From the sequence record PQ310662.1: a stretch of DNA of 64,000 nucleotides. One strand, given 5' to 3'. The position numbers and the translations under genes are program-made. The notes beneath the pieces were generated by a model. It was not told where the DNA came from, ran no database searches, and saw only the letters and a program-made list of their open reading frames with translations. Below are positions 2,557 to 27,990 of the stretch, one piece after another (the stretch's first letter is position 1; the number at the start of each line of letters is the position of its first letter). The stretch is from Escherichia phage Mimir124.

Positions 2557-3731
2557 TGAATAACATACCTACACATACCCTTACTGATGAACAGTTAATG
2601 AGGGAGTACGACAGGATCCAAGCCAACGCATTTCTTGGACGCAGCGCAGCGTTTTTTGGTTCATTGCTGTGTAGTCTTAAGTTCTCATGGAAACGTGAGG
2701 ACTGTCCTACTGCATGTACCGATGGGATAGAACTCCATTTCAACCCAGACTTCTTTATCTGGATGTGTCCCGATGCAAGAGAAACAGTGCTAATGCACGA
2801 ACTCTGGCATGTGGCATATCTGCACGGCATCCGTTGTGGAAGCCGTGACCCGGAAGTCTGGAACCAGGCATGTGACCACTTCATCAACCTTCAGTTAGAA
2901 GAAGATGGTTACAAGTTCACTGGTATCGACAAAGGCATTTGCAAAGACCCTCAATATAAAGGATGGGTCGAAGAAGACATCTACGATGACCTGATGAAGA
3001 ACCCTCAGAAAAGGCAGAAGCCGTCAGGGGGTGCTGGAGCAGGTCTTGCTGGCGACATGAAAGCTCCCTCTTCGGGGCAGTCCCAGGGTGCTGTTGTCAA
3101 CAACGTAGTACGTGCAATGCAAAGCCAGAAGATGGCTGGTGGAATGATGCCCGGTAAAGGTGCTGGTCGTATGGAAGAGGTAATTACCCAATTCCTTAAA
3201 CCAGTGGTTCCTTGGCAGGAAGTCCTGCTGAACTTCTTTACCGACATTGATGACACACACTATACGTGGGCCAGACCTAATCGTCGTTTCACTGACATCT
3301 ATCTACCTTCTCTGGAAGATGATGAAGGACGCTTACGACACTTAGCTTACTTTGAGGATGTATCTGGTTCTATTAGTAGTGCTGACTCTCTGCGTTTTAA
3401 CTCAGAGGTTGCCTACGTTAAGAGCCAGTTCAATCCTAAGAAGATGACCCTTATTACCTTCGACGATATTATCCAAGAAGAAATAGACATCACTGAAGAA
3501 GATACTTTTGAAGAGATTAAGATTACCGGTCGTGGTGGTACAAACCTTGAACCAGTGCGTGAATGGATTATTAAGAATAAGCCAACCGCTGCAATCATAT
3601 TCTCTGATATGTATGTTAAACCAATGGAAGAATTACCATTTGATATCCCTATCATCTGGTGTGTTCTGAATAATCCCAATGCTACCGTACCTTTTGGGGA
3701 GGTAGTTCATATCCATAAAGGAATGAAATAA
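2556..3731 (+). CDS. VWA-domain protein with N-terminal HExxH metallopeptidase-like motif (partner of MoxR-like ATPase)
   Basis: HExxH (MHELWHVAYLH) in N-terminal part; MIDAS-like DxSxS (DVSGSIS) in C-terminal part; start overlaps the HNH stop. Confidence 0.5.
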   Translation: MNNIPTHTLTDEQLMREYDRIQANAFLGRSAAFFGSLLCSLKFSWKREDCPTACTDGIELHFNPDFFIWMCPDARETVLMHELWHVAYLHGIRCGSRDPEVWNQACDHFINLQLEEDGYKFTGIDKGICKDPQYKGWVEEDIYDDLMKNPQKRQKPSGGAGAGLAGDMKAPSSGQSQGAVVNNVVRAMQSQKMAGGMMPGKGAGRMEEVITQFLKPVVPWQEVLLNFFTDIDDTHYTWARPNRRFTDIYLPSLEDDEGRLRHLAYFEDVSGSISSADSLRFNSEVAYVKSQFNPKKMTLITFDDIIQEEIDITEEDTFEEIKITGRGGTNLEPVREWIIKNKPTAAIIFSDMYVKPMEELPFDIPIIWCVLNNPNATVPFGEVVHIHKGMK

Positions 3732-25725: not shown

Positions 25726-25896
25726 ATGAACAAATTTACTATTCACTGGCTCAATGGAAAGGTTAGTTCTTTCATGGGTGAAGAACCTGCTGAAGGAAAC
25801 AAAGCATTCCACATTGATTCAGAAGGCTGCAAAATCTTAATACCTTATGCTTGGTATAAAGATGGTGAAGTTGAAGCATTGAAAAAGAGTAGTTAA
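25726..25896 (+). CDS. small hypothetical protein (start uncertain; longest ORF begins 25630)
   Basis: In-frame ATG at 25726 inside the 25630..25896 ORF; last + ORF before the ORF-poor region. Confidence 0.25.
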   Translation: MNKFTIHWLNGKVSSFMGEEPAEGNKAFHIDSEGCKILIPYAWYKDGEVEALKKSS

Positions 25897-26107
25897 TATC
25901 GTGAAGGGTTCTGTCAGAATCCTTTGAGATAGGAACTCCTATCATAACCTTTCTTAACTTAATCTTTGCCGTATGGCACTGACGCTAGGGGTGGCCCCCC
26001 ATCCGTCAGACAGACTATTTTAAGAATGGGTTATCTCAGAAAATGTAAAGCAACATTCGGGTTAATCAATGGCCTCTCCTATAGGGGCCATTTCTGAGTC
26101 TTAGGCT

Positions 26108-26135
26108 ATATCCCAAAGGTTAGTATCTTTGGGAT
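26108..26135 (+). repeat. perfect 10-bp inverted repeat (hairpin) with 8-nt loop
   Basis: TATCCCAAAG-gttagtat-CTTTGGGATA. Confidence 0.6.
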
Positions 26136-26577
26136 AAGGCTTCAGATCCCTTATCAAACTAGCTGCTCAATGTTGAGCATATTAATCAACCAAGCCCAAT
26201 AAGGGGGCGGGAGTTTAATGCCGGTAAGCATAAGCCTATCCGTCTACAACATCGAACTGTTAGATCTTACATGCAATATAGGGTATAAAGGGAGGACTCG
26301 TCCCCTCCCTCCTATTATGAACTATCGGAGAGTGCATTAGTTGATTAGCTGTGGAAGGTAGGCCGATGTCCACGAGCATGGCCCAGAGCTAGTGTACTCC
26401 CCGATAGTTTTCGTAGCGATTATGCGGTTTTTTAGAAACGAACCAATAACATAAATGCAAACGAAGAAGCGTATCTGATGGTCGCCTAACAGCGTAACCT
26501 CAGTCAGGAGTGAGTCGTCCTGATTATCAAACGACCGTGGAGTTCTCCCGTCCATGTATTAGAAACGGGGGACCAAT

Positions 26578-26701
26578 TACCAGTTGCACGAGATGGCTTG
26601 ACATGTTCAAGTTTGGACTAAGTGTGACACCGCTAGATTGGAGGGCTGCTGCGGTAAGCTATAGACTCCAACCGGAGGTTCGAATCCTTCACTGGTAACC
26701 A
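26578..26701 (+). ncRNA. tRNA-like element: perfect 7-bp acceptor-type helix plus canonical T-arm and encoded CCA, but about 121 nt long (non-canonical)
   Basis: TACCAGT (26578-84) pairs ACTGGTA (26691-97); T-arm GGAGG-TTCGAAT-CCTTC; discriminator A then CCA; interior cannot be folded into a standard cloverleaf by hand. Confidence 0.3.
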
Positions 26702-26777
26702 ATTCAAAGTAGCACTGTATCTTTAAATGTTTCCCGGCATTCAAAGAACCCACCGTGACAGTGCTACTCTGAATTGG
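26699..26777 (+). repeat. long inverted repeat: 19-bp stem with one A/C mismatch and 41-nt loop
   Basis: CCAATTCAAAGTAGCACTG (26699-26717) pairs CAGTGCTACTCTGAATTGG (26759-26777); starts at the CCA of the upstream tRNA-like element. Confidence 0.55.
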
Positions 26778-26805
26778 AAGAATTAAGACGGGTCTGGTTG
26801 AAGTA

Positions 26806-26899
26806 GATGGGGTTCGATTACCTCCGGTGGAGTAATCCACTAGCGTGCTTGGTGCACGAATAAGACTTAGTACTGGTGGTTCGATTCCATCCCCCGTTA
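26806..26899 (+). ncRNA. second tRNA-like element (T-arm and acceptor-type pairing present, cloverleaf unresolved, about 94 nt)
   Basis: T-arm GGTGG-TTCGATT-CCATC, 3' strand CCCCGTT pairs GATGGGG at 26806-12 with G-U pairs; interior has 4- and 5-nt hairpin loops, not a canonical anticodon arm. Confidence 0.2.
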
Positions 26900-27093
26900 C
26901 CTGAAGTCGCCAGGTACTTATGGCAAACGGGTAGTAACGAACTAGTCATTCGTCAAACGCCCACCCAATTATGAGTCAGCAAGAACGCCTTCACTTAAAC
27001 TTAAACAAAAAAGCTTAACGCAATAATTATGTAGGGGTATGTAAGGATTGCGAAGAAGGAGCCAGTTAGAGCCTGGCATGACTCACCTATTAT

Positions 27094-27167
27094 GTCCACT
27101 TAGCTTAGACTGGGAAAGCAACCGACTAATAATCGGAAGGTCACTGGTTCAAATCCAGTAGTGGATA
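27094..27167 (+). tRNA. tRNA, canonical cloverleaf; anticodon reads AAT (Ile-type, unusual A34)
   Basis: Acceptor GTCCACT/AGTGGAT (one G-U), D-stem GCTT/AAGC with GG in D-loop, anticodon stem ACCGA/TCGG(A) with loop CTAATAA, T-arm ACTGG-TTCAAAT-CCAGT; 74 nt, CCA not encoded. Confidence 0.6.
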
Positions 27168-27402
27168 CTTATTCAGCAGTAACATAGTCCTGATTGCATA
27201 GCACTCTAAAGACAACACTGGTAAGACAGTCCAGTGGCTGCTAATGTATTGTTATTCCCCTCGACGGGAATTTCGCTAGTGAAGGTAACACTTAAAAATC
27301 CAAACCTACGTCTTACTACTATCGGGCTATCAACCCACGGTCGCTTAACCCTGTAGTGATAGTAGTTTGACGGCCTGCCTCGTTGACTGCGTTAAAGTCA
27401 CT

Positions 27403-27439
27403 AAGTCCCTCGGAGCCGTCACTCTGGGGGACTTTTTTA
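27403..27439 (+). terminator. putative terminator closing the ORF-poor region
   Basis: AAGTCCC...GGGGACTT stem with long loop followed by TTTTTTATTT. Confidence 0.4.
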
Positions 27440-27609
27440 TTTGAGAACTGTTTATTGGACGATTCATATGATTGACCTAATCTTAACCCCGTATGCCTAT
27501 GAGGTAACGGATAACCGAGGACGTAAGTCTTTGGTGTTTGCAGGTAGCGTAGCCTATAACAACGCAGTCATGTTTAAATACAAACTTAAACCACTTTATG
27601 AGGCTAATA

Positions 27610-27990
27610 ATGGCAACAGTAAGTAAAGAATCAATCGAAGCTAAGATTAAGAGCGTTTACTATTTCAATGGTGCTGATGCAGTAAAGACTGCATTCGTTA
27701 ACCCTTCTGCACTTCCGGCAGACGATTTGGCTAACCTGAGCCTGGTAACCTACTGTATTATCATCCTGGAAAACGGATTCAAAGTTGAAGGTGTATCTGC
27801 CTGTATTGACCCAACCATCTATGATGAACAAAAAGGCCGTCAGTATGCATATGAAAATGCATTCAATAAGATTTGGGAAATAGAGGGTTACCTGCTACGT
27901 CAGGCATTGCATGAGAAAGAGGAGACTACTAAGGCTCTGGCTTCCTTTGCAGAAAACAACACCTGTGATGGTGGTGGTTGCACCATTTAA
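27610..27990 (+). CDS. conserved phage protein, possibly N4 gp49-like family
   Basis: 126 aa from ATG 27610 (longest ORF starts 27598); sits shortly upstream of the giant RNAP gene; family assignment is from memory of a Pfam family name and is unverified. Confidence 0.35.
   Translation: MATVSKESIEAKIKSVYYFNGADAVKTAFVNPSALPADDLANLSLVTYCIIILENGFKVEGVSACIDPTIYDEQKGRQYAYENAFNKIWEIEGYLLRQALHEKEETTKALASFAENNTCDGGGCTI

Follow-up and report, generated by a model that had tools for sequence, protein, structure and literature searches.

A conserved predicted RNA gene carrying only the template half of tmRNA within a small-RNA island of coliphage Mimir124

Overview

In the DNA of Escherichia phage Mimir124 analyzed here (sequence record PQ310662.1; "the window" denotes this whole stretch of 64,000 nucleotides [nt]), positions 25900 to 27440 form a small-RNA island that closes the rightward block of replication genes. 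About nine structured cassettes follow one another head to tail on the plus strand of this island, up to a terminator at 27403-27440. One of them, at 26403-26571, is, as far as can be judged from sequence, a conserved RNA gene that carries the template half of transfer-messenger RNA (tmRNA) only. An earlier note on the same DNA overlooked this tmRNA-tag-like cassette, as well as the mosaic of cassettes that extends across phage families. As a whole, the region is in our view best explained as an RNA island that includes a tmRNA-derived template RNA, which would pair with the host tmRNA and either substitute for or block the host tag template; we lean toward this explanation without holding it firmly.

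A tmRNA-like template region with an intact tag reading frame

The tmRNA-like cassette and its parts are listed below.

26403-26571, plus strand: tmRNA-derived RNA, an mRNA-like domain without a tRNA-like domain (weak Rfam hits, 116 copies, covariation)
26403-26427, plus strand: 5' arm, GAUAGUUUUCGUAGCGAUUAUGCGG, complementary to E. coli tmRNA nt 74-107
26426-26444, plus strand: upstream hairpin, GGUUUUUUAGAAACGAACC, nearly invariant, at the position of tmRNA pseudoknot 1 (PK1)
26457-26489, plus strand: tag reading frame, GCA AAC GAA GAA GCG TAT CTG ATG GTC GCC TAA, encoding ANEEAYLMVA and a stop
26475-26503, plus strand: helix around the 3' half of the open reading frame (ORF), with the stop codon in the loop (C-UAA-CA), as in tmRNA helix 5
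26504-26535, plus strand: H-type pseudoknot, with stem 1 formed by 26504-08 and 26519-23 and stem 2 by GUCG (26514-17) and CGAC (26532-35)
26545-26571, plus strand: terminal hairpin, with the conserved loop UGUAUUAGAAA here and UGUGAUUAAUAA in most other phages

A permissive Rfam scan matched the cassette only to tmRNA_permuted (23 bits) and beta_tmRNA, in both cases over AUAAAUGCAAACGAAGAAGCG...GCCUAA, which covers the tag region only. Phages SE131, Ag3, and selz and a T1-like phage likewise gave tmRNA-family signals of 22 to 30 bits. None of these hits reached an Rfam gathering score (RF00023, 11.3 bits, in SE131; RF04321, 22 to 30 versus 47 bits; RF01850, 14 to 17 versus 84 bits).

The tag encoded in the window has a clear relationship to the E. 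coli tmRNA tag, ANDENYALAA. No in-frame start codon lies 5' of the frame, where an in-frame UAG is present. The context of the resume codon is ..CAUAAAU/GCA, with the same two bases at -5 (U) and -4 (A) as in E. coli tmRNA. U(-5) and A(-4) help to set the resume frame of tmRNA. The tag ORF was intact in all 116 copies, which were collected by a pattern scan of IMG/VR and from fetched loci: each begins GCA AAC GA.. and has 10 codons followed by TAA. The 16 tag variants share the pattern AN[DE][DENQ]x[hydrophobic]L.[AV]A and include ANDNAFRVAA (SE131), ANEEMYLAVA (a bat-faeces siphovirus), ANDDVVLMAA (Ag3), ANDNTFLAVA (selz), and ANDDLMMVAA (P1). Across 91 distinct sequences, variation at codons 3, 4, 9, and 10 was concentrated at the third position, with entropies at positions 1/2/3 of 0/0/0.96 (codon 3), 0.55/0/1.3 (codon 4), 0/1.0/1.61 (codon 9), and 0/0/1.52 (codon 10). 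The tag ORF is thus apparently under coding-like constraint. An ORF in the +1 frame, starting from the AUG of AAAUGCA, was also considered and was rejected, as its products (MQTKKRI, MQTMMLF, MQTMM, etc., each ending at a stop) are unconserved in sequence and length and it is not preceded by a Shine-Dalgarno sequence.

Base pairing was counted in the same 91 distinct sequences after motif-anchored extraction, which favors the proposed register; the permutation control was passed through the same extraction. Stem 1 of the pseudoknot was paired at 99.3% (82.5% with partners permuted), with three to five pair types at three positions, and stem 2 at 99.7% (70.2% permuted), with four versions (CCGA:UCGG, CCAG:CUGG, CCAA:UUGG, and GUCG:CGAC). 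In the stop-codon helix, the outer pairs covary (CUGA/UCAG, CUGG/CCAG, and UGAU/AUCA; 95.3% paired versus 86.4% permuted), and the inner pairs (GGC/GCC, AGC/GCU, and CGC/GCG) likewise pair. The terminal hairpin occurs in three stem versions among the 69 copies with the UGUGAUUAAUAA loop and was paired at 99.3%, compared with 61.4% after permutation. No permutation equalled the observed pairing of the pseudoknot stems or of the terminal hairpin. The upstream hairpin, which has the consensus GGKUUUUWAGAAAC..ACC and lies 6 to 12 nt 5' of the resume codon, allows no covariation test because its alignment columns are invariant. Overall, the anatomy of the cassette is that of a tmRNA template region, consisting of a linker, a template, helix 5 (whose loop holds the stop codon), and a pseudoknot.

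Distribution of the tmRNA-like RNA

A BLAST search with 26400-26512 matched 329 phage records. By genus name, these were mainly phages of Salmonella (100), Klebsiella (99), and Escherichia (83), with smaller numbers from Shigella, Serratia, Cronobacter, Enterobacter, and Erwinia and a single Vibrio phage. The carriers include N4-like phages, siphoviruses of about 45 to 49 kb (grouped here without a taxonomy check), Ackermannviridae, SE131 (Grimontviridae), HK620, P1, D6, and SJ46. Nearly all of the matches lie under no annotation, and tRNA genes usually adjoin the element. Prophage copies were found in E. coli (lambdoid), Erwinia phyllosphaerae, and Pantoea agglomerans; the latter two were the only ones recovered by a scan of genome contigs for a wider host range.

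In P1 (AF234172; locus 2391-2662), the element lies in the C1-controlled leader of the ban operon, with the terminator of the annotated "dicF-like region" immediately 5' of it and the genes for tRNA-Asn and tRNA-Thr on its 3' side. With the dicF-like region, the element, and two tRNAs in a row, the P1 leader is itself a small-RNA island. The P1 GenBank record has 535 features, among them the dicF-like region, and is blank at the element. Shigella phage Ag3 (locus 833-2685) carries an unannotated, structure-rich stretch of about 1.85 kb with the tmRNA-like element and several tRNA-like pieces, one of which has an acceptor stem and a T arm at about 1285-1350. A subthreshold Rfam hit to the Salmonella small RNA (sRNA) family STnc100 was also found there (2199-2308; 33.7 versus 47 bits).

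Complete tmRNAs are known from mycobacteriophages and huge phages. A literature search found no description of a template-only tmRNA in phages; subscription journals were mostly outside its coverage, so an earlier description is possible.

Complementarity of the 5' arm to host tmRNA

The segment of E. coli tmRNA to which the 5' arm is complementary, nt 74-107, spans the 3' strand of PK1, the resume codon (which starts at nt 90), and codons 3 to 6. The most conserved motif of the arm, (R)GUUUUCGU, is the exact complement of ACGAAAAC in E. coli tmRNA, corresponding to the tag codons GAC GAA AAC; inside the element, no good pairing partner was found for it. When the 363-nt E. coli tmRNA was searched for the longest perfect complement of each of 34 representatives, the match was this motif, at nt 96-106, in 31 of them. 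Two further conserved blocks, GCGAY and UWUGCGG, match GUCGC (nt 87-91) and CCGCAAA (nt 75-81, in the PK1 3' strand) as complements. Longer arms are complementary to the host in almost collinear order; for one of them, the reverse complement reads CCGCAAA-GTCGC-TAACG-TGACGAAAAC, compared with CCGCAAAAAATAGTCGCAAACGACGAAAAC in the host. The variable linker of the arm falls in a predicted internal loop, and the invariant blocks fall in paired parts.

Nine divergent arms (from the window, a T1-like phage, the lambdoid prophage, P1, Ag3, SE131, two Erwiniaceae prophages, and one more) were compared with E. coli tmRNA by RNAduplex. The best site was always tmRNA nt 74-106/108, with a free energy (dG) of -24 to -34 kcal/mol and 23 to 29 predicted pairs. 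Unrestricted RNAduplex runs with whole RNAs allowed huge loops and were uninformative. For the arm in the window, the dG was -24.1, compared with -18.5±2.4 for shuffled arms, and 11 of 400 shuffles were equal or better; seven of the nine arms were beaten or equalled by 0 to 11 of 400 shuffles. Pairing of the arms with their own templates was far worse (dG of -12 to -24). At the arm-complementary positions, the template of the element differs from the host, with AAU in place of GUC before the resume codon and with codons 3 to 6 changed. The element thus diverges from host ssrA exactly where divergence avoids self-pairing, and its arm is still complementary to the host, which argues against a dead ssrA fragment. 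The predicted fold of the precursor places the start of the arm in a helix formed by 26320-26409. The arm was also considered as a sense homologue of the tmRNA D-loop and helix 2 (UUCG...UUUGCG), which was rejected on the basis of a 10-nt match compared with at least 22 nt in the antisense orientation.

Extended and conserved complementarity to a host RNA, by which anti-sRNAs and sponges are recognized, was found here in silico only. The element resembles AgvB and AsxR, the anti-sRNAs of Stx phages in enterohemorrhagic E. coli, and the prophage sRNA DicF in being a short phage RNA, for which base pairing with a host RNA is predicted in the present case; such RNAs are often located in the leaders of late or early operons. 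It differs from them in its predicted target, which is tmRNA rather than an Hfq-associated sRNA or an mRNA, and in the presence of a conserved template ORF. We know of no sponge with such an ORF.

Absence of the tRNA-like half

ARAGORN, run in tmRNA mode on the window and 16 relatives, made no tmRNA call. T1-like phages have a promoter at the border of the element and the other contexts have spacer hairpins, with no T arm inside the element. The promoter, TTGACA-17-TAGATT, was seen in a T1-like phage and in siphoviruses of about 45 to 49 kb and reaches to 7 nt before GAUAG, the first conserved bases of the element; no T arm is close by in the T1-like phage. The lambdoid E. coli prophage carries the element on its own, flanked by spacer hairpins, in the interval from PR'/tR' (downstream of Q) to the lysis genes. 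No T-arm motif was found within 1.5 kb in many of the siphoviruses of about 45 to 49 kb and in several T1-like and HK620-type contigs, nor did the 5' end of the element contain a strand complementary to nearby CCA-ending 3' strands. As the tRNA-like domain is absent, the RNA is not a tmRNA by the defining feature of that family.

Two arrangements that would supply the missing half in the window were rejected. Against a one-piece tmRNA over 26200-26701, the sole covarying partner of ACTGGTA-ACCA is TACCAGT at 26578, inside the neighboring tRNA-like cassette D, and 210 to 335 nt separate the template from cassette D in relatives; TGCCGGT at 26211 is a further candidate for the 5' acceptor strand. 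For a permuted tmRNA with an upstream acceptor piece, the sequence that follows 26320-26340 is GCAUUAG instead of NCCA, and the hairpin at 26291-26310 has no T-loop.

The phage RNA shares with one-piece tmRNA (SsrA; RF00023, clan CL00001) the GCA resume codon, the A/U-rich linker, U at -5 and A at -4, a 10-codon tag of the ANxxxxLxAA type, an ORF whose 3' half and stop codon lie in a hairpin (helix 5), and a pseudoknot that comes next. In contrast to tmRNA, it has no acceptor stem, D-loop, T arm, or CCA, and it therefore cannot by itself be alanylated or enter the ribosomal A site. It is also shorter (about 170 versus 363 nt), has one pseudoknot instead of four and a hairpin at the PK1 site, scores 11 to 30 bits compared with Rfam thresholds of at least 47, and carries an extra 5' arm that is antisense to tmRNA itself. 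The two-piece tmRNAs of alpha- and betaproteobacteria and cyanobacteria are similar in that the template is on an RNA separate from the acceptor/T-arm part and in their dependence on intermolecular helices (as proposed here), and the best Rfam hit of the phage RNA is tmRNA_permuted. In those tmRNAs, however, both pieces come from one gene and the coding piece provides the 5' acceptor strand, whereas the phage RNA has no acceptor strand and its proposed partner is the intact one-piece tmRNA of the host, contacted through the template region. Complete phage tmRNAs (cluster C mycobacteriophages and some huge phages) are likewise phage-borne ribosome-rescue RNA genes beside tRNA genes. They are recognized by ARAGORN, unlike the RNA described here, which lacks the tRNA-like half.

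Other cassettes of the island

The remaining features of the island are as follows.

25900-26181, plus strand (assumed from the neighbors): cassette A, nested long hairpins at 25979-26009, 26068-26092, and 26099-26146
26182-26411, plus strand: cassette B, a hairpin at 26291-26310 and a helix with 21-nt arms (26320-26340 and 26389-26409)
26578-26701, plus strand: tRNA-like RNA D, 124 nt, with an acceptor stem (26578-84 and 26691-97) and a T arm (26674-26690)
26699-26777, plus strand: spacer hairpin E, with 20-nt arms that are 95% complementary
26803-26901, plus strand: tRNA-like RNA F, with two T-loop-type hairpins, a GNRA-type hairpin, a CGUGC/GCACG hairpin, and the 3' end CCCCGUUACC
26904-27093, plus strand: cassette G, a structured spacer with two inverted repeats, found in Gamaleyavirus only
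27094-27168, plus strand: tRNA-Ile with anticodon AAU (ARAGORN; Rfam tRNA, 62.6 bits; annotated in relatives)
27169-27402, plus strand: cassette I, a structured trailer with hairpins at 27309-27372
27403-27440, plus strand: intrinsic terminator that closes the island, annotated at the homologous position in PhAPEC5, PhAPEC7, and G7C

Cassette boundaries were taken from BLAST breakpoints. In alignments to 16 relatives, breakpoints recurred at about 26318/26336, 26390, 26493, 26569/70, 26720, 26785, 26903, 27088-94, and 27160-67, and whole blocks were gained, lost, or swapped at these points. The cassettes are therefore separate evolutionary units. Blocks inserted in some relatives contain tRNA-Ala(CGC), tRNA-Cys(ACA), or a pseudo-tRNA with a 6-nt anticodon loop. 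The distribution outside close relatives also differs between segments: 26182-26411 recurs in phiEco32-type phages and its core (26340-26386) in Ackermannviridae, 26403-26500 in hundreds of phages, 26571-26720 only in N4-like phages of E. coli and Klebsiella (43 records), and 26803-26893 within tRNA clusters of the T4-like phages VR5 and PEi20.

Three T-arm motifs had been reported for the region, of which only one was thought to belong to a canonical tRNA. All three were found (GGTTCGAATCC at 26677, GGTTCGATTCC at 26878, and GGTTCAAATCC at 27147), together with a fourth, degenerate motif at 26810 (GGGTTCGATTACC), and tRNA-Ile(AAT) was indeed the sole tRNA call of both ARAGORN and Rfam in the island. 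An adenosine in the wobble position is unusual in bacterial tRNAs; it occurs in tRNA-Ile(AAU) here and in the island tRNA-Cys(ACA) of Bp4 and ECBP1 (loci L014 and L015, about 3276-3356). Several relatives carry a near-duplicate 5 to 10 nt 5' of tRNA-Ile that has a 6-nt anticodon loop and is called "tRNA-??? (ac)" by ARAGORN.

Cassettes D and F are, to judge by their comparison among homologues, tRNA-like RNAs whose helices are maintained by compensatory changes. RNA D has two long extra arms where a tRNA has its D and anticodon arms, lacks an anticodon loop, and encodes ACCA (26698-26701); ARAGORN made no tRNA call, and there was no Rfam tRNA hit at an E value of ≤10. Compensatory versions were found for its acceptor stem (TACCAGT/ACTGGTA, TATCAGT/ACTGATA, and TACTGGT/ACCAGTA) and its T stem (GGAGG/CCTTC and GGGGG/CCCTC), and the long arm covaries as well. 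The 43 records with cassette D are exclusively from N4-like phages of E. coli and Klebsiella. As its 3:70 pair is C-G, D has no alanine identity. In F, for which ARAGORN also made no tRNA call, the two T-loop-type hairpins represent an internal 24-nt duplication, and the sole Rfam hit (E value of ≤10) was to tRNA-Sec at 19.3 bits, compared with a threshold of 47. All four hairpins of F stay paired through compensatory changes among N4-like and T4-like homologues; in the window, the first T-loop hairpin has a disruptive C-to-A change relative to relatives. Unannotated homologues of F lie between tRNA-Met and tRNA-Arg in VR5 (locus L145, 1501-1587) and after tRNA-Met in PEi20 (locus L146, 601-687), and the VR5 copy is distinct from the rnaD homologue of that phage at 1682-1798. 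D and F resemble T4 rnaC and rnaD (species 1 and 2), which are also tRNA-like RNAs of obscure role embedded in a phage tRNA cluster, in having a T arm and an acceptor-like end that is presumably freed by tRNA-processing enzymes. They differ in that no BLAST similarity connects them, the rnaD homologue of VR5 being a different, neighboring element. Homology of D or F to rnaC or rnaD was accordingly rejected, as BLASTN at word size 7 gave only chance matches of 12 to 22 nt.

Cassette A was found in Gamaleyavirus relatives only and is 94 to 99% identical in 19 loci, which leaves no room for a covariation test; it is possibly a leader, processing, or stability element. Homologues of cassette B with 76 to 89% identity are present, without annotation, in phiEco32-type coliphages of about 75 to 78 kb. 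The predicted precursor fold pairs 26320-26340 with 26389-26409; the 3' strand of this helix extends into the start of the tmRNA-like RNA, which makes the helix a candidate for processing of the RNase III type. The core of B enclosed by this helix (26340-26386) reads GCUGUGGA-AGGUAGGCCGAUG-UCCACGAGC-AUGGCC, is 85 to 87% conserved and unannotated in Ackermannviridae (including Salmonella and Dickeya phages), and may fold into a hairpin with a GGCC loop that can pair with a downstream GGCC in a possible pseudoknot. At the 3' end of cassette G, some relatives have a pseudo-tRNA with a 6-nt anticodon loop, and the first 75 nt or so of cassette I are common to Klebsiella N4-like phages.

Hairpin E may be a site of processing or may link cassettes. 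T1-like phages, lambdoid phages, and P1 have spacer hairpins with the motif AGUGCUCUU, to which the 3' strand of E, ACAGUGCUACUCU, is similar. This spacer-hairpin motif (5' strand, CACAACAGGUAAGAGCAUU; 3' strand, AGUGCUCUUUCCGUUGUGG) flanks RNA cassettes in T1-like phages, lambdoid prophages, and P1 (locus L018, 1670-1760; locus L150, 3925-4010 and 4176-4200; locus L151 [P1], 2664-2740), and a diverged form of it is present at 26699-26777. The motif may serve for RNase III cleavage, for recombination as a linker in cassette shuffling, or for both. The arrangement recalls the PeSL-type linkers of T4-type mobile regulatory cassettes, in which short conserved hairpin-forming sequences also flank shuffled small cassettes. 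Unlike PeSL linkers, those described here (CACAACAGGUAAGAGCA ... AGUGCUCUUUCCGUUGUGG and relatives) flank RNA genes and span T1-like, lambdoid, P1, and N4-like phage families.

Genomic setting, folding, and coding potential

Mimir124 is a G7C-like N4-type coliphage (Schitoviridae, Gamaleyavirus). The top BLAST match to 25900-27440 was PhAPEC5 (95% identity), and about 40 related records matched at 88 to 97% identity. On the 5' side, the island is preceded on the plus strand by homologues of N4 gp44, gp45 (SSB), gp46, and gp47 and by two small ORFs, ending at 25896. On the 3' side lie gp48/gp49 homologues (gp48 at 27598-27990, plus strand), and the gene for the 3,449-amino-acid virion RNA polymerase (vRNAP), which runs from 39228 to 28879, is convergent to the island. 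An 18-nt imperfect direct repeat brackets the island (25833-25850, AATCTTAATACCTTATGC; 27479-27496, AATCTTAACCCCGTATGC). Each copy falls within a small flanking ORF, and the peptides that they encode (ILIPYA and LILTPYA) are similar. The repeat was rejected as an insertion footprint or a sign of paralogous ORFs, since the two small proteins have no BLASTP similarity.

Public records annotate this stretch inconsistently. In Klebsiella phage K57alpha1.2, a "tail spike protein" is annotated over the homologous region, and the vRNAP itself is named "gram positive anchor domain protein" in ECBP1 and "DNA polymerase" in ST4 and PD205. In PhAPEC7 and Bas96, the annotation of the gp44/Sak4-like gene joins two pieces, suggesting an intervening element, and G7C has an HNH homing endonuclease gene between gp47 and gp47.2 (locus 1794-2291). 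Both observations indicate that mobile elements are active around this block in relatives.

The hairpins described in the earlier note were all confirmed: the bipartite hairpin at 25979-26009 (CTGACGCTAGGGG/CCCCATCCGTCAG), the GGCCTCT..AGGGGCC hairpin at 26068-26092 (AATGGCCTCT/AGGGGCCATT), the perfect 10-bp hairpin at 26109-26136, which is the core of a longer inverted repeat (26099-26146), the GGGAGG/CCTCCC hairpin at 26291-26310, and the terminator-like hairpin, which has a 13-bp stem (27403-27434) followed by TTTTTTATTT. Further long inverted repeats with arms of 15 to 21 nt had been missed (26320-26340/26389-26409, 26699-26718/26758-26777, 26954-72/27023-41, and 27309-23/27358-72); such long imperfect helices close or separate most cassettes. 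Minimum free energy (MFE) z-scores relative to dinucleotide shuffles were -7.0 for 25900-26181, -5.0 for 26699-26800, -3.2 for 26182-26411, -2.8 for cassette G, and -2.7 for cassette I, compared with -0.6 to -3.7 for four coding controls. MFE was not significant for the tmRNA-like and tRNA-like cassettes (z of -0.4 to -2.0), and support for these comes from covariation. Both strands of the stretch fold equally well; the plus strand was assigned on the basis of the tRNA, the terminator, and the oriented RNA genes.

The earlier note had offered two interpretations, a set of structured RNAs or a replication origin. The former, worded as tRNAs plus tRNA-like or regulatory RNAs, stands in the form of one real tRNA, two tRNA-like RNAs with compensatory changes, spacer hairpins, and a terminator. 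The latter, in which the hairpins of an origin or other DNA-level element would act in DNA, found no support, and we consider it very improbable. The stretch adjoins replication genes, is rich in inverted repeats, and folds equally on both strands, as might be expected of such an element. However, its G+C content (0.42 to 0.48) equals that of the flanks and leaves no AT-rich tract that could serve as an unwinding element; a repeat search found no iterons or tandem repeats in the stretch and thus no initiator-binding repeats; and the GC-skew turn lies outside it at about 28.7 kb, at the flip in gene orientation. Relatives can also do without whole cassettes, and the contents are recognizable RNA genes on one strand with a terminator at the end.

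It is scarcely credible that protein-coding genes have been missed in the stretch, and the view of the earlier note that it holds no convincing ORF is upheld. Some records annotate hypothetical proteins of 40 to 70 amino acids here (nine in Bas96; 51.1 and 51.2 in PhAPEC5). However, the longest ORFs within 25897-27440 have 77, 72, and 62 amino acids, and the ORFs are on both strands, overlap one another and the structured cassettes, and cross breakpoints that vary among relatives. None of the five ORFs tested, including these three, matched Pfam at an E value of ≤1.

Proposed mechanism and alternative explanations

According to the explanation that we favor, the island would be transcribed along with the upstream genes, and the individual RNAs would be released by RNase III-type cleavage at the long spacer hairpins and by RNase P and 3' trimming at tRNA-like ends; in T1-like phages, the template RNA would instead be made from its own promoter. 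The tRNA-like RNAs may serve as processing handles or tRNA mimics. By pairing with host tmRNA nt 74-107, the 5' arm would make the host tag template double-stranded and thereby mask it. The same pairing would put the phage hairpin, linker, and template at the places of PK1, linker, and template and would thus tie the phage template to the alanyl-tRNA-like domain of the host and to SmpB. Rescued ribosomes could then resume on the phage template and add a phage-specified tag, the two RNAs acting as a hybrid "two-piece" tmRNA; alternatively, the pairing might merely block host tagging. Docking and substitution of this kind, with tags such as ANEEAYLMVA or ANDDVVLMAA being added, is possible but rather doubtful. 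The phage tags presumably keep the protease-recognized C-terminal A-A or V-A and alter SspB-binding residues; they may serve to reroute tagging, to accelerate it, or simply to block it.

Several points weigh against these proposals. Without a tRNA-like domain, there is no established route to translation of the tag ORF, and the docking model is without precedent. The phage tags are still degron-like, so that the gain from replacing the host tag is hard to see. As the ORF lies partly in a helix, its sequence is constrained in part by RNA structure. Statistical support for the duplex is modest (z of about -2 to -3), and the nine arms are homologous and hence not independent tests; moreover, 85 of 400 shuffles equalled or beat the SE131 arm, as did 59 of 400 for an Erwinia prophage arm paired with E. 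coli tmRNA. In the window, the MFE fold of the element pairs the arm with its own template. In addition, we infer RNase III processing at the spacer hairpins from hairpin shape alone.

One alternative is a pure antisense inhibitor, a sponge or anti-sRNA that shuts down or destroys host tmRNA, for example through RNase III cleavage of the duplex, and whose tag-like ORF would go untranslated and persist only as an RNA structure or protein-binding mimic. We regard this as unlikely overall, yet as a serious rival. Prophages are known to encode anti-sRNAs, such as AgvB and AsxR, all variants have an arm complementary to tmRNA nt 74-107, the tRNA-like domain is lacking, and part of the ORF is in a conserved helix. 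However, a mere antisense RNA has no need of third-position variation at codons 3, 4, 9, and 10, the tag pattern is held over 16 variants with the U(-5) A(-4) context kept, and the single-stranded 5' half of the ORF changes in sequence yet remains tag-like. Less likely still is a split phage tmRNA, in which the template RNA would be the coding piece and a separately encoded tRNA-like RNA (here cassette D) the acceptor piece. D, which carries a terminal ACCA and shows structural selection, directly follows the template in the window, PhAPEC7, and F22; in SE131, a T arm with an acceptor-like 3' end lies 181 nt past the resume codon, and unannotated T-arm motifs occur 134 to 221 nt downstream in many contexts. 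In contrast, many carriers have no T-arm motif within 1.5 kb, and the intervals in the lambdoid prophage and P1 contain no tmRNA-type partner. D has its own complete, covarying acceptor stem, which leaves a coding piece no unpaired strand to join, it has C-G at 3:70 instead of the G-U required for alanylation, 210 to 335 nt, sometimes with tRNA-Cys, separate it from the template in most relatives, and it was found in just 43 records compared with 329 for the template RNA.

The island might also be a decaying tRNA cluster joined to a dead fragment of host ssrA acquired by recombination, with tRNA-Ile as the only functional gene, which we consider quite improbable. Gain and loss of cassettes between close relatives, the ARAGORN pseudo-tRNAs with 6-nt anticodon loops in relatives, the damage to the T-loop hairpin of cassette F by the C-to-A change in the window, and annotations of "tRNA-OTHER" or "Pseudo" in the region are in agreement with decay. 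It does not account for the compensatory changes that preserve helices in D, F, and the tmRNA-like RNA, for a tag ORF intact in 116 of 116 copies and in unrelated phage families including P1 and HK620, or for an ssrA divergence that avoids self-pairing as the arm keeps its complementarity to the host.

Implications

tmRNA has been thought to function only as a single unit, with its halves covalently joined or co-encoded, and a lone conserved template half challenges this view. It suggests a hitherto unrecognized route by which phages may manipulate ribosome rescue and protein quality control. If docking and substitution were true, this would be the first virus found to rewrite the output of trans-translation and the first natural instance in which one genome provides a tmRNA template in trans to another, in P1, HK620, and T1-like, Vi1-like, and N4-like phages. 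Since P1, HK620, and T1-like phages are among the carriers, the proposal is testable with standard genetics. For phage annotators, the element represents a new RNA gene in regions that are now blank or filled with spurious small ORFs. More broadly, small RNA cassettes, including tRNA-like RNAs and spacer hairpins, appear to travel as units between phage families.

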